A stretch of 64,000 bases of DNA from Candidatus Latescibacterota bacterium (GTDB lineage Bacteria; Latescibacterota; UBA2968; GCA-2709665). Below the pieces are notes generated by a model, which was not told the origin of the DNA, did not search any database, and saw nothing but the letters and a program-made list of their open reading frames with translations. Both the position numbers and the translations under genes were made by a program. Shown here in pieces: positions 17,646 through 37,041 of the stretch. The stretch spans positions 4,448,001 to 4,512,000 of the forward strand of contig OZ242358.1 in assembly GCA_965208835.1 (NCBI GenBank). The letters run 5' to 3'. Position 1 is the stretch's first letter. The number at the start of each line of letters is the position of its first letter.

Positions 17646-17816
17646 GGGCAGACAGGAATGTCCGCCCCACCCTCAAAGTGCAGGCGCCCACAAGGGACGC
17701 CCCTACACTGCAAACTTGGCCGGGTGAGAGCGTGCCGTGATATGGCAATTCGCAGCGGCGCAGCGGTGTTGCATAATGCGTCGCTCGTCGCATTTTGCAA
17801 CAGTGGGAGGGCCATC
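17646..17816 (-). repeat. Conserved 3' tail module (boxes + two REPs), copy after 17817..20336
   Basis: GTGG-REP 17646-17670, GTAG-REP 17683-17706, boxes 17767-17783 and 17786-17802. Confidence 0.85.
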
Positions 17817-35600: not shown

Positions 35601-37041
35601 TGGCCGTCCACGCGCCAGCTATACCACCTGCATCCGTAACCCGCACCTCATAACCCGCGATGCCCGCGTCGTCCGCACGGTCCCACGACAGCGTCACCGC
35701 ACCCTCGCCCGCAGAGGCCGCAAGGCCACCGGGCGCCGGCAGCGCGCCCACGGTTACCCACACGTGCGACGGCGCCCCCGGACCCGCGACGTTCACCGCG
35801 CGCAGGCCCACCCGATACCGCGTGCCGTCGATCAGCCCCGTCAACGTGGTGCTGTATCCCGCACCCTCGTCCACCGCCGCCGCGGCCGTCCAGTCCAGGA
35901 TCAACCCGTTCGGGTCGCCGTAGCTGACTTCAAACCCCGTCACACCCGTACCGCCCCCCTCGGTCCACGTCAGCACCACCCGCCCGGCGCCGGGCCATCC
36001 CGCCAGGCCCTCCACCGCCCCCGAAGGCGGCGTCGGCGTCACCCGTACCACCGACGAGTCGCCGTGCGCTTCCCCTGCCAGCGCGCGCACCTCGAACGTA
36101 TGCTCGACACCGTTGGTCAGGCCTCCGATCGTATGCGACGTCGACACGGGGATCCCGATCCACACCGAATAAGGCATGCCTTCACGAATATAACGAAACT
36201 CATAACCCGTCACCGACACATCCATCGCATCGTCCCACTTCAGACGCACCTGACCGTCGCCCGGACGCGCCGTAAGGTTCGCAGGCGCATCCGGCACGAG
36301 AGACACGGCTGCGCTCGCACCACCCCCCGCACCCAGCACGCTGACCGCACGCACCCAGAACGTATACGACGCACCCGCACTCAGCCCCCCCACCGTATGC
36401 TCCGTCGTCCCCGCGTGGCTGCCCTCGATATTGCGCCAGTTCTGTACCAATTCCCCGCCGCGGATGTACTTCAGCTCATACCTCAAGATCGTCGCCTGGC
36501 CCGCATCGTCCCACGTCAACACCCCCTCACCCGCCACGATCTCAGCAGACAACCCCGAAGGCGCCGCAGGTACAGTCACCGTGCTCGACGTCTCCAGGTC
36601 GTACATCACGCTCTCCGACCATCCGCTCAACGCGCTGCCGCGCACCGCGCGCACCTCGAACCGGATATACCGCTCGCGACCCCGCGTGCCCGGACTGAAC
36701 CGCCGACGCGTCACACCGCCCGAAATCGGGGTCCCGCCGACACTCACACGGAACAACCCGCTCGTCAACGACGTGTGCCTGATCCGGTAGCCCGTCACGG
36801 CGCCCGCGTTCACCTCTGGGGCGCGCCACGTCAACAGGATGCGGCCGCCCGAATCCGCGGACGCGTTCAACTCCGTCGGCGCATCACCGCCTTGAGAAAA
36901 CAGCGGCGACGCGAAAATCAATACCAGCGCGCACGATAGAAGCCATTGTCCGCCGCGGCACAGCCCGCGGTTCATCGCCACCCTCGACCCTGAACACAAC
37001 GCCACCGCCGCACGCCGCGGTTCCGCCCTACCGTCCTGCAC
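29602..37041 (-). CDS. Giant surface protein (2479 aa): fibronectin type III repeats + Ig/He_PIG-like repeats + C-terminal dockerin-like domain
   Basis: GGAGG RBS before GTG; signal peptide; about a dozen LxW...Y...GLTNGxxYTFEVRAV units; Ig repeats with Cys pairs; GDFNGDG...DLNGDGTINYADF. Confidence 0.9.
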   Translation of the reverse strand: MQDGRAEPRRAAVALCSGSRVAMNRGLCRGGQWLLSCALVLIFASPLFSQGGDAPTELNASADSGGRILLTWRAPEVNAGAVTGYRIRHTSLTSGLFRVSVGGTPISGGVTRRRFSPGTRGRERYIRFEVRAVRGSALSGWSESVMYDLETSSTVTVPAAPSGLSAEIVAGEGVLTWDDAGQATILRYELKYIRGGELVQNWRNIEGSHAGTTEHTVGGLSAGASYTFWVRAVSVLGAGGGASAAVSLVPDAPANLTARPGDGQVRLKWDDAMDVSVTGYEFRYIREGMPYSVWIGIPVSTSHTIGGLTNGVEHTFEVRALAGEAHGDSSVVRVTPTPPSGAVEGLAGWPGAGRVVLTWTEGGGTGVTGFEVSYGDPNGLILDWTAAAAVDEGAGYSTTLTGLIDGTRYRVGLRAVNVAGPGAPSHVWVTVGALPAPGGLAASAGEGAVTLSWDRADDAGIAGYEVRVTDAGGIAGAWTAIPGMDAAATRHTVGGLENGTLYTFEVRGVNPAGVGAMSSVTAAPGVPAAPERLRWTLAQGAVALTWAVAGNAAITGYQVRWYAGASTDVAWTDIAGSFAGTDRYVVTGVTNVRSYTFEVRAVSAAGPGAAAGVMPMTAKAPGNLRAEAGVNAVTLHWDEPPDASITKYQVRIYEAGAQVPPWSDVEGSDAGTIDHEETGLTNGQSYTFDVRAVNTFGPGAASSVSAAPVPAPPAGLTATAGVGQVTLVWEVTTDASVTGYQLRFFRGGVPVTGWFDVPVTSPHPIVGLPNGIEHTFGVRAVSGTVHGEASVAKATPVPATPANLEATAGVNQVTLAWTAPGDASVTAYQLTYYSGARPAAPSWTDIPGSGPGTADHVVRGLTNGTAYTFEVRAVAAATPGDASAAAATPYPAAPADLEATAGVSQVRLEWTATDDDAVTAYQLMYYSGDRPAQPAWTGIPDSDASTTDHVVTGLTNGTAYTFEVRALAAATPGEASAAAAAPAPAAPDQLGALSQDRAVTLSWADPMDDAVDGYEVRHGEDAASVSAAAWRDIAAGDVERRSHRVSPLTNGTTYTFELRARAGFVRGAASSVTARAGCPSIAVTGVGDTTVTVGQALSMQAVVSGVQDGRYGLAVVPEEGSGLSIDEESGAISGAPTAAGAYTVTVTVTDENGCTGESDFTVQVCPVIAVGGLRDTSVTVGQALSMQAVVSGAQDGRYALAVVPEGSGLSIDEQSGVITGAPTAAGAYTVTVRVTDAGGCMGEGAFMVQVCPVVTVAAIEDVTVTVGDSISIPAVAEGGCGTIAYTMTGAPEDVEIDGTTGVISGAAAPAGRYEVTVTAADEEGNTGQEGFTLTVVCPEITVGGLSDATVTVGQSVSMTATGSGSRASYWYFISSEPAQGITLSIGERDGAVTVTAASAGAYTVTVRVRDDYGCSATGTFTVTVNCPDIAVADVRSFEVEVNRTFRRTAAVSGGCGTRSSSKEAGPEWVRHRIDDNGNLIVHGTAPSTPGRHEVRVRVRDTGDAGNHDDEQFTITVVSPPPPPLGIMCPSDITVTEGGAIRTTASAWEGVPPYSFQRLSVRPSGQTLTLTANKGKATITGTAGPEGAYDVSVRVNDSDGASESCQFRITVTPRSCSAIAVSQSPDPVTVKAGGATTVSVSATGGCGSKSFGDPGGLAWVTRTQGTDNQYDVMPPADAAPGNYTFSVTATDAEGNTGTGTIKVRVTCASIGYAGPGKVTVQAGGSETAAATASGGKPDHTFTKTGGPDWVTINAGGTISVTSAPDASGTHTVNVGIQDANECPGTGSFTVEVVCPAVSVAQSPDPVTVQAGGTATVSVSATGGCGSKSFGDPGGLAWVTKKPGTDNQYTVAPPADTSPGNYSFDVTATDSEGNTGAGAINVTVNCPAIKVTQSPDPVTATAGGTATVGVSATGGCGSKSFGDPVGLAWVTKKQGTDSQYTVAPPADTSPGNFTFSVTATDSEGNTGTGAINVTVNCPAITVTQSPDPVTVKAGGTATVSVSAAGGCGSKSFGDPVGLAWARKTASNQYTVAPPADTSPGNFTFSVTATDAEGNTGAGVINVTVNCPAITVAQSPDPVTVKAGGTATVSVSATGGCGAKTFGNPVGLAWARKTASNVYTVAPSADATPGNYTFNVTATDEQRNTGAGTIKVTVACPTITVGGLSDVTVEVKKDLPSITASASGGRGQYRYRRKSGPGWVEVDAGGGIGGRAPGVRGEFNVTVEATDASGCTGEKSFIIRVIVPPLTIADIDDVDADVNKTISSITPSASGGETPYTFSTSGRPAGISSSTSTGVISGAPTALGTFIITVTVTDARPETAETDFTMYVSRALSIGSISDVVVTWQLDMDPIQVSASGGRGAYTYSLESAPAGITISSGGSIGGTPTQLGSATVTVIVKDQGKRQEEASFTMTVALPGDFNGDGRRDAADAKLFNKMMGLRRSDAGYDRRMDLNGDGTINYADFVILSGYIESDAAARGGGGS

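Follow-up and report, generated by a model that had tools for sequence, protein, structure and literature searches.

The minus strand of the 64,000-nucleotide stretch of DNA analyzed here (the window) carries one giant gene with FN3, He_PIG and dockerin domains, hereafter the immunoglobulin-like (Ig) gene, followed by four paralogous genes for metallopeptidase-WD40-dockerin proteins, P1 to P4. The window comprises bases 4,448,001-4,512,000 of the single 5.18-Mb contig, free of N, of a 97.8% complete genome of the Latescibacterota, and the array lies at 4.465-4.485 Mb. Upstream of P2, P3 and P4 there is in each case the 3' stump of an Ig-type gene, and every P gene is followed by a conserved tail with repetitive extragenic palindromes (REPs). 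The best explanation of the locus is a tandem family, specific to this lineage, of secreted O-glycopeptidase-like proteins with dockerin tags, situated behind a giant adhesin-like gene whose product is also dockerin-tagged. It is probable, at roughly 0.55, that modules of an Ig gene and a P gene were stacked in tandem, that the Ig bodies were then deleted up to the REPs, and that gene conversion followed. The array thus looks like the product of ordinary gene duplication and loss at fragile spots, not of a dedicated cassette machine.

Structure of the Array and Its Junctions

The preliminary description of this DNA proposed four head-to-tail units of Ig gene, P gene and tail, and this arrangement is confirmed by a repeat finder, which returned direct-repeat families of four copies spaced 2.8-3.3 kb apart, and by BLAST of the window against itself. 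The P4 unit matches the P1 unit at 83.4% over 3066 nt (17634-20641 vs. 26780-29802), the P2 unit matches the P1 unit at 85.3% (23998-26391 vs. 26789-29203), and the P4 unit matches the P2 unit at 79.2% (17621-20045 vs. 23977-26391). The P3 unit is far more distant from the other three. It was also correctly described that the Ig gene is intact only in the first unit, and the stumps estimated at about 255, 740 and 200 bp measure 254, ~750 and 201 nt (Table 1). The P genes are not all whole, however, because P2 is a pseudogene. The array had been said to end at the REP at 17646, with AT-richer DNA beyond. The GC content does fall, from 0.68 at 18-19 kb to 0.49-0.55 below 18 kb, but the homology of tail 4 to tail 2 extends ~25 nt beyond REP-B, to 17621, where the lower-GC DNA starts. 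An Rfam scan of 17000-38000 gave no match at E <= 0.1.

Every P gene has downstream of it a tail of ~190 nt that can be aligned across the four units and contains a unit-specific part, a palindrome, REP-A and REP-B. The REPs are short, imperfect, hairpin-forming palindromes with dispersed extragenic copies, and tail 1 folds into hairpins (z -2.48). A census of the 5.18-Mb genome found 87 copies of REP-A, 43 of REP-B, 29 of REP-D and 5 of REP-C, with mismatch limits of 4, 4, 3 and 5, respectively. A direct doublet of REP-A and then REP-B, both on one strand with their starts 38-55 nt apart, occurs four times in the genome, each time in the array, which indicates that the doublet was copied along with the units. 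The palindrome and REP-A also form a dispersed composite of ~88 nt, found in the window at 53516-53651 and 57527-57574 and elsewhere in the same genome (labeled G000, contig C1) at G000:C1:1890076-1890157 and 2006746-2006860; the copy at 2.0 Mb lies directly before a REP-C. Because the composite occurs at several places, the REP families appear to form mosaic clusters at several genome sites. Among the genomes of relatives compared (G002, G008, G012, G013 and G014), G008 has a complete spacer between two P genes in which the REPs run in the order A, B, D and C, and the block of REP-B, filler and REP-C of tail 3 is conserved in G012 at 82-86%.

The three stumps begin 1, ~8 and 8-10 nt after REP-B, REP-D and REP-C, respectively, so that a different family is involved each time. 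The preliminary description had already placed the breakpoint at 26792 against a REP, here REP-B, and that at 20641 close to another, here REP-C at 8-10 nt. Its distance of ~70 nt for the breakpoint at ~23930 needs revision, since REP-D lies only ~8 nt away. At the join of stump 1, the tetranucleotide CGTC is common to both sides. Positions no more than 8 nt after the end of a REP make up only ~6% of the P-P spacer of G008, and the adjacency of all three breakpoints is therefore unlikely to be due to chance, at an order of 1e-3 or less by our own post hoc arithmetic. In addition, P genes of G008, G012 and G014 are separated by the same cluster of A, B, D and C, and the REPs are thus older than the junctions. 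Later insertion of REPs at the junctions was rejected, the same cluster being present in four species. As to the claim of recombination at the REP tails, REPs do stand at every inter-unit junction, but the 5' boundaries of the units lie in coding DNA without a REP.

Table 1. Features of the array, in window coordinates.
Feature	Coordinates	Strand	Description
Ig gene	29602..37041	minus	Giant surface protein; open reading frame of 2479 amino acids; C-terminal dockerin
Ig-P1 spacer	29498..29601	minus	104 nt; conserved leader of P and ribosome-binding region
P1	26999..29497	minus	Intact, 832 amino acids: signal peptide, predicted OgpA/Amuc_1438-like metallopeptidase and beta-sandwich, WD40 propeller, Big_1, dockerin
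Tail 1	26793..26998	minus	~75 nt unit-specific, palindrome, REP-A 26867-26844, REP-B 26815-26793
Stump 1	26538..26791	minus	Last 254 nt of Ig-type gene (dockerin); starts 1 nt after REP-B
P2	24192..26541	minus	Pseudogene
Tail 2	23938..24191	minus	REP-A 24079-24056, REP-B 24024-24002, ~25 nt common with tail 4, REP-D core 23964-23946
Stump 2	~23937..23188	minus	~750 nt of a second, older Ig-type gene; frame open; starts ~8 nt after REP-D core
P3	20920..23166	minus	Intact, 748 amino acids; older-lineage paralogue, without Big_1
Tail 3	20642..20919	minus	REP-A 20807-20784, REP-B 20755-20733, 45-nt filler, REP-C 20686-20652
Stump 3	20441..20641	minus	Last 201 nt of Ig gene (dockerin only); starts 8-10 nt after REP-C
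Spacer copy upstream of P4	20337..20440	minus	Second instance of the 104-nt Ig-P spacer
P4	17817..20336	minus	Intact paralogue of 839 amino acids; catalytic core far more diverged from P1 than flanks
Tail 4	17621..17816	minus	REP-A 17706-17683, REP-B 17668-17646

Divergence of the Stumps and of the Units

Stump 1 shares 90.7% identity with the 3' end of the Ig gene (29617-29831) and stump 3 shares ~94% (11 differences in 183 compared nt), while the two stumps are 92.9% identical to each other. Stump 2 is only ~76% identical to the live Ig gene. It contains two He_PIG domains (2.5e-16) and a Dockerin_1 domain (1.4e-9) by Pfam, and its translation is 73.8% identical over 221 residues to the end of a long Ig open reading frame (ORF) in G014. 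The coding match to the G014 protein reaches through PACPPLSVGSISD, ~8 nt from the REP-D core.

The divergence of the stumps is almost purely synonymous. Among the Ig gene, stump 1 and stump 3, there are 17 variable sites in 61 codons, of which 15 are third-position synonymous and 2 are nonsynonymous, both in stump 1. Stump 1 differs from the Ig gene at 12 sites, 10 of them synonymous, corresponding to a nonsynonymous divergence (dN) of 0.014, a synonymous divergence (dS) of 0.29 and a dN/dS of 0.05. The 66 codons of stump 3 translate identically to the C-terminus of the Ig protein, and all 11 differences in the 61 codons compared are synonymous (dN 0, dS 0.32). Of the 122 first and second positions, none is changed in stump 3 and 2 are changed in stump 1. 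Third positions account for 9 of the 11 changes on the two stump branches, against an expected one third (binomial p ~1e-3, own arithmetic). Stump 2 keeps a frame of ~240 codons and has 10 unique amino acid changes, compared with 8 in the intact G014 orthologue, and no rate acceleration. The most economical interpretation of these sequences is that each stump belonged, until recently, to a complete gene under selection. If the stumps were coding up to that time, as this divergence suggests, a history in which whole Ig-P modules were stacked and then lost their Ig bodies is favored.

Translation of the stumps as they now stand was considered and rejected. A TAA lies directly before the first codon of stump 3, the upstream part of the ORF that contains stump 1 is a reading of the REPs, and stump 2 lacks a signal peptide; in none of the three was there a credible start or signal peptide. 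A pattern scan for sigma-70 promoters and terminators found none in stumps, spacers or tails, although the sigma-70 pattern may not be the promoter type of this phylum, and its only recurrent promoter-like match was inside P coding sequence.

The P genes have diverged unevenly along their length. In the comparison of P1 with P4, dS ranges from 0.08 to ~1. Of the four segments of the core (residues 122-364), three have values of 0.75-0.97 and one of 0.41, whereas the N-terminal part gives 0.19-0.29 and the WD40-dockerin part 0.08-0.30. Since dS between P1 and its G008 orthologue is 0.37-1.0, the cores of P1 and P4 probably split before or around the split from G008, and the flanks would have been homogenized later. 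Moreover, P4 contains a 100-nt block with 90% identity to P3 but 83% to P1. In a tree of the cores, P3 groups with the G014 orthologue, while P1, P2 and P4 form one clade with genes of G008 and G012, and P4 has no closer relative in the genus. Such a pattern marks a tandem family that evolves in concert through gene conversion.

The two instances of the 104-nt spacer are 90.4% identical (10 differences), and the last ~45 nt are also conserved 5' of P genes in the relatives. An early stop, following ARGGGGS, is common to the Ig gene (29605-29640) and stump 3, and stump 1 (26538-26580), stump 2 and the Ig ends of the relatives continue through a Gly/Ser-rich tail past that stop. Because the stop comes earlier in the Ig gene and stump 3 than in the other copies, ~27 nt of the spacer would be former coding sequence.

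Arrays in Related Genomes

The preliminary description proposed that the units are amplified and shuffled, and both the number and the order of units do vary among the relatives and so are not identical everywhere. Arrays carry one to four P genes: Ig-P1like-P3like in G008, Ig-P3like-P1like in G002, Ig-REPs-P-REPs in G013, and an Ig gene followed by four P genes in G014, while G012 has two loci. Nine loci contain 17 P genes whose start is detectable; a long Ig ORF precedes 7 of these, and several others come after stumps that abut a REP but have other lengths. Such stumps include, in G014, a stump of ~170 nt starting 12 nt after REP-C and one of ~125 nt near an inverted REP-A and, in G012, stumps of ~50-64 nt that twice start directly at REP-C. 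Coding-looking stumps are present in G014 as well. The REP-C/dockerin-start junctions of stump 3 and G014 are alike, both lying after a P3-type and before a P1-type gene, with TCTCC after REP-C. In G012, a 3162-nt copy of 98.1% identity starts where one REP-C ends, 50 nt short of the Ig stop, and runs into the next REP-C. Some P-P tandems are stumpless, and three P genes in the relatives have no stump and just 37-89 nt between REP and ATG; for this reason, a role of the stumps as promoter carriers was rejected. In one G012 locus (L026, contig C4, ~13068-13418), the dockerin of the long Ig ORF has an in-frame stop, between FNK and MGL, and this copy may have lost its dockerin.

Recombinases and Assembly

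The preliminary description tied the REPs to a REP-associated tyrosine transposase (RAYT) of the Y1 type. The Y1 profile PF01797 gave 0 matches at E <= 0.001 in the genome, where 4 candidates were scored. Within the genus, weak partial matches occur in 8 of 14 genomes, in ORFs of ~200-1250 amino acids (best E 6e-10, profile positions 40-121), and no convincing full-length RAYT was found in the 15 genus genomes searched. In G008, G010, G012 and G016, ORFs of 1200-1440 amino acids include weak partial matches to positions 40-121, at E 1e-8 to 1e-10, that may represent HUH-like domains in large proteins. The genome has only two tyrosine recombinases (family PF00589); they lie at 3.90 and 4.95 Mb, each over 400 kb from the array. 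The statement that the window contains no integrase holds, as no recombinase or transposase family matched in the 44 window ORFs scanned.

Sequencing data for this stretch comprise four runs of one sample from one study, with short-read contigs, and no RNA run is among those listed. The contigs are identical to the window over unit interiors, and one of 2356 nt (21724-24079) spans P3, stump 2, junction 2 and the REP-B to REP-A part of tail 2. The contigs break at REPs and at the repeated dockerin motif, and junctions 1 and 3 are unbridged among the pieces listed. Apparent joints in the run data were not accepted as rearrangements because their sides are only 21-38 nt long and lie inside repeats.

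Origin of the Array

We infer the following order of events, with deletion rather than partial duplication of the Ig genes and with a physical role for the hairpins. Two-gene modules, each with an Ig gene, a P gene and a 3' tail bearing a cluster of REP hairpins, would first have been stacked in tandem, and to this extent the two-gene stacking of the preliminary description is supported. Three of the four modules would later have lost the Ig body through deletions whose upstream end lies where a REP of the preceding tail ends on its 3' side, and whose downstream end falls at differing positions within the final 200-750 nt of the Ig gene. Conversion between units would then have homogenized the 5' part (stump, spacer and signal peptide) and the WD40-dockerin-tail part, while the cores stayed diverged, and P2 would finally have decayed. 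The REPs may have acted as fragile or protected boundaries, either as replication-stalling hairpins that favor microhomology joins or as terminators kept by selection, rather than as sites of a dedicated recombinase.

Several points weigh against this history. Three independent deletions would all have ended in the last 10% of a 7.4-kb gene, for which the random chance is roughly 1e-3 by our own arithmetic. This clustering in the last 200-750 nt is better explained by partial duplication with a breakpoint in the 3' end of the Ig gene. A unit of Ig 3' stump, spacer, P gene and tail would then have been copied as such, with breakpoints in the dockerin region and a REP, through template switching or microhomology at a hairpin, and the stumps would never have been complete genes in place. 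Such an origin is possible but rather improbable. It agrees with the position of two of the breakpoints, and of one in G014, within ~30 nt of the dockerin start, with the CGTC at junction 1, and with REP microhomology junctions of duplications known in E. coli from the accessible text of PMC1428787. The recent G012 copy, with its start so close to the Ig stop and REP-C at both ends, looks like direct transfer of a unit of short stump, P gene and REPs, and an array with two complete Ig genes was not seen in the relatives examined. At one truncation junction in G012, where a P gene directly follows a 5' remnant of an Ig gene, there is no REP. Furthermore, if the likeness of the REP-C/dockerin-start junctions in G000 and G014 means that this junction is ancestral, stump 3 must be old, which leaves its purely synonymous divergence without an explanation. 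The statistics of the stumps also rest on 17 sites. Partial duplication nevertheless has difficulty with the same sites, because stumps that had been noncoding since a dS of ~0.3 should show many first- and second-position changes instead of the two found in stump 1 and none in stump 3, and because stump 2 has not accelerated.

The coding-type conservation of all three stumps would also be expected if they were kept coding-competent for recombination with the 3' end of the live Ig gene. Through such handles, formed by the conserved 5' block and the WD40-dockerin-tail block around the variable catalytic core, another P gene would be brought behind the intact Ig gene, or cores would be swapped by conversion. 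The conserved flanks, the diverged core and the coding-looking stumps of G014 fit this idea. It is unlikely, since stumps 1 and 3 encode the dockerin of the live gene and so offer no variation, the dS of 0.1-0.3 between the handles means that any exchange is rare, P genes without a stump occur in several relatives, and stump 2 is only ~76% identical to the live gene. Variant forms were not seen either, in short-read data that could not have shown them. A related and equally doubtful idea is that the 3' edges of the conserved REP cluster are preferred one-sided recombination points with the dockerin end, the stumps being kept as homology handles of an enzyme-independent switch. If true, it would amount to a slow cassette switch for host-facing effectors, placing or exchanging glycopeptidase units behind one expressed Ig-P module. 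Mobilization by an enzyme that recognizes REP hairpins and excises or inserts P cassettes, as in an integron, is very unlikely. It would account for REPs at every junction, and the G012 unit between two REP-C is the product expected of a circle integrated at REP-C; the weak partial Y1-like matches in the genus might also be counted in its favor. The genome itself has no Y1 match, however, and its two tyrosine recombinases are far off. In addition, the three junctions involve three REP families, the 5' boundaries of the units have no REP and the divergence between units is old. The integron-like array of the preliminary description therefore finds no support, as there is no sign of a cassette system and the units are old and mosaic, include a pseudogene, have unequal flanks and, in some P-P tandems of relatives, lack stumps. 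Finally, misjoins at REPs or repeats could in principle have produced the number and order of units, given the contig breaks at REPs and the dockerin motif and the two unbridged junctions. Such an artefact is highly improbable, because an assembler would not collapse or confuse units with differences of 15-30%, the short-read contigs agree over unit interiors and one crosses junction 2, the genome is one gapless contig, and similar arrays occur in relatives. The order of the units is less secure. Stacking of whole modules, deletion of Ig bodies up to the REPs and subsequent conversion thus remains the preferred history.

The P Proteins and the Ig Gene

P1, P3 and P4 each have a signal-peptide-like N-terminus, a ~340-residue domain, a WD40 propeller and a dockerin, and Big_1 is present in P1, P2 and P4. 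The N-terminal part of P3 is 49% identical to that of P1 in amino acid sequence, with an alignment gap at Big_1. The HExxH motif is found in all four genes (in P1, HELAHAFGMLWHD at residue 210), and H171, E172, H175, G178, H182 and D183 of the extended motif HExxHxxGxxxHD are invariant in 20 of 20 aligned sequences. No Pfam or NCBIfam family was found for the N-terminal domain of 380 residues apart from weak matches to PF12044 and to metzincin motifs. A model of this domain built from 20 sequences (pLDDT 85, pTM 0.85) resembles, by Foldseek with the P1 domain, OgpA (E 5e-16, TM 0.63) and Amuc_1438 (E 8.6e-16), with TM scores of 0.61-0.64. A sequence profile searched against PDB also finds both Akkermansia enzymes (8dek at 4.2e-10, the other at 3.7e-5). 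The predicted fold is that of an OgpA/Amuc_1438-like O-glycopeptidase, with a catalytic domain and a beta-sandwich. According to the available text on Amuc_1438, that enzyme has a metzincin-type center with HEXXH and a third His, and only a short PF12044 match is reported (PMC9513282). By analogy with this description, a His would serve as the third zinc ligand in the P domain.

The peptidase domain is expanded in this lineage, with 11 matches in the genome, 2-22 in each of the 14 other genus genomes, and presence in 32 of the 41 genomes searched. Besides P1 (28358-29497), P3 and P4, it is found at six more places in the genome, in ORFs of ~400-2200 amino acids with varied C-termini. A search of metagenomes for sequences closely related to the N-terminal domain of P1 gave 76 pattern matches, none of which was confirmed. 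In the accessible parts of the literature on dockerin, cohesin or OgpA with sponge symbionts or Latescibacteria, no publication on the P family or the array was found. Dockerin_1 is present in the Ig gene, P1 and the stumps, and the genome yields 38 matches to dockerin and 4 to cohesin, 3 of the latter over the cut-off. Both halves of a putative cohesin-dockerin display, the dockerins of the cargo and the cohesins of the genome, are therefore encoded.

In P2, the frame changes in a run of seven C near 25775 (25740-25800), where P1 has six C, and tblastn of P1 on P2 returns two frames, 26391-25771 and 25775-24198. The segment matching residues 1-98 of P1, including the first conserved strand, is missing or replaced. 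The frame change may reflect switching by slipped strands or simply a mutation that inactivated the gene; no indel was seen at the run in the short-read contigs.

The Ig protein matches fn3 (E 3.8e-94), He_PIG (4.9e-73) and Dockerin_1 (1.3e-7) in Pfam and carries further Ig-like repeats. The upstream GTG listed as its start (36975-37041) is probably wrong, and the true start is likely the ATG at 36975, 22 codons in, ahead of a signal-peptide-like stretch. A 338-nt sequence upstream of the gene (37444-37781) is repeated with 91.7% identity ~79 kb away at G000:C1:4406033-4406370, near a distant member of the peptidase family (4407443-4408141). A second giant ORF, in the region of G000:C1:627951-628827, has an open frame of 2491 amino acids and a dockerin end whose DNA is 72% identical to the stumps, and within ~400 nt after it there is an ORF of 304 amino acids with a cohesin match. 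Beside the array, the lower-GC stretch at 82-8497 encodes leucine-rich repeat and FG-GAP repeat proteins, followed by several ORFs with no family match, so that eukaryote-like repeat content continues there. Eukaryote-like repeat proteins are described as abundant in sponge-associated Latescibacterota in the available text of PMC8163846.

Significance and Comparison with Known Systems

Across three species of an uncultured phylum, small extragenic hairpins mark the points at which large surface-protein loci have been cut and rejoined, and this phylum seems to be without the usual REP transposase. An expanded family without a previous name can now be named as OgpA-like O-glycopeptidase domains joined to WD40 propellers and dockerins, and the P proteins are plausible tools against host or prey glycoproteins at the cell surface. 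The nearly pure synonymous divergence of apparently untranslatable stumps is an anomaly.

The closest relatives of the peptidase by structure are OgpA (6z2d) and Amuc_1438 (8dek, 8df2) of Akkermansia muciniphila. In common with these, the P domain combines a metzincin-like domain with a beta-sandwich, an HExxH motif with a third His and a weak PF12044 match. Sequence identity is only 14-17%, however, and WD40, Big_1 and dockerin domains take the place of the NPCBM module.

The pilE/pilS and vlsE/vls systems consist of tandem families with silent truncated copies and gene conversion. The array resembles them in its truncated, promoterless, frame-preserved copies beside a live gene, its mosaic tracts and its variable core within conserved flanks. 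In contrast to these systems, stumps 1 and 3 encode no variation, exchange is rare as judged from divergence, and the truncated copies are of the neighboring Ig gene and not of the diversified P genes.

REPIN-RAYT systems combine REP doublets, made of GTAG/GTGG-type palindromes, with a Y1 HUH transposase. The array likewise has dispersed palindromes of the GTAG/GTGG type, in tens of copies that are often clustered, but no Y1 gene was found in the genome and the array doublets are two families in direct order instead of an inverted pair of a single family. The likeness to integrons lies in head-to-tail units of one orientation that end in a hairpin element behind one large gene. Unlike integrons, the array has no integrase, and its hairpins belong to four dispersed families and not to one attC class. 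Its units have REP-A and REP-B and, variably, REP-C or REP-D at their 3' ends, and 5' ends inside Ig coding sequence. Moreover, each P gene has its own leader, and the units are paralogues of one family rather than unrelated cassettes.

Shyamala and colleagues (1990) reportedly found REPs or bacterial interspersed mosaic elements (BIMEs) at the joints of his duplications in Salmonella. In the amplification of lac in E. coli, 4 of 28 duplication junctions were at REP sequences, used as short homologies, according to the accessible text of PMC1428787. The array shares with these enterobacterial joints extragenic palindromes of several families at novel tandem joints and no dedicated enzyme. It differs in that a REP stands on one side only, with coding DNA on the other, and in that the joints have been fixed in evolution rather than selected in the laboratory and recur at the same REP cluster in three species. 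A novel joint in or at a REP is found at three junctions of the window, with further cases in G012 and G014.

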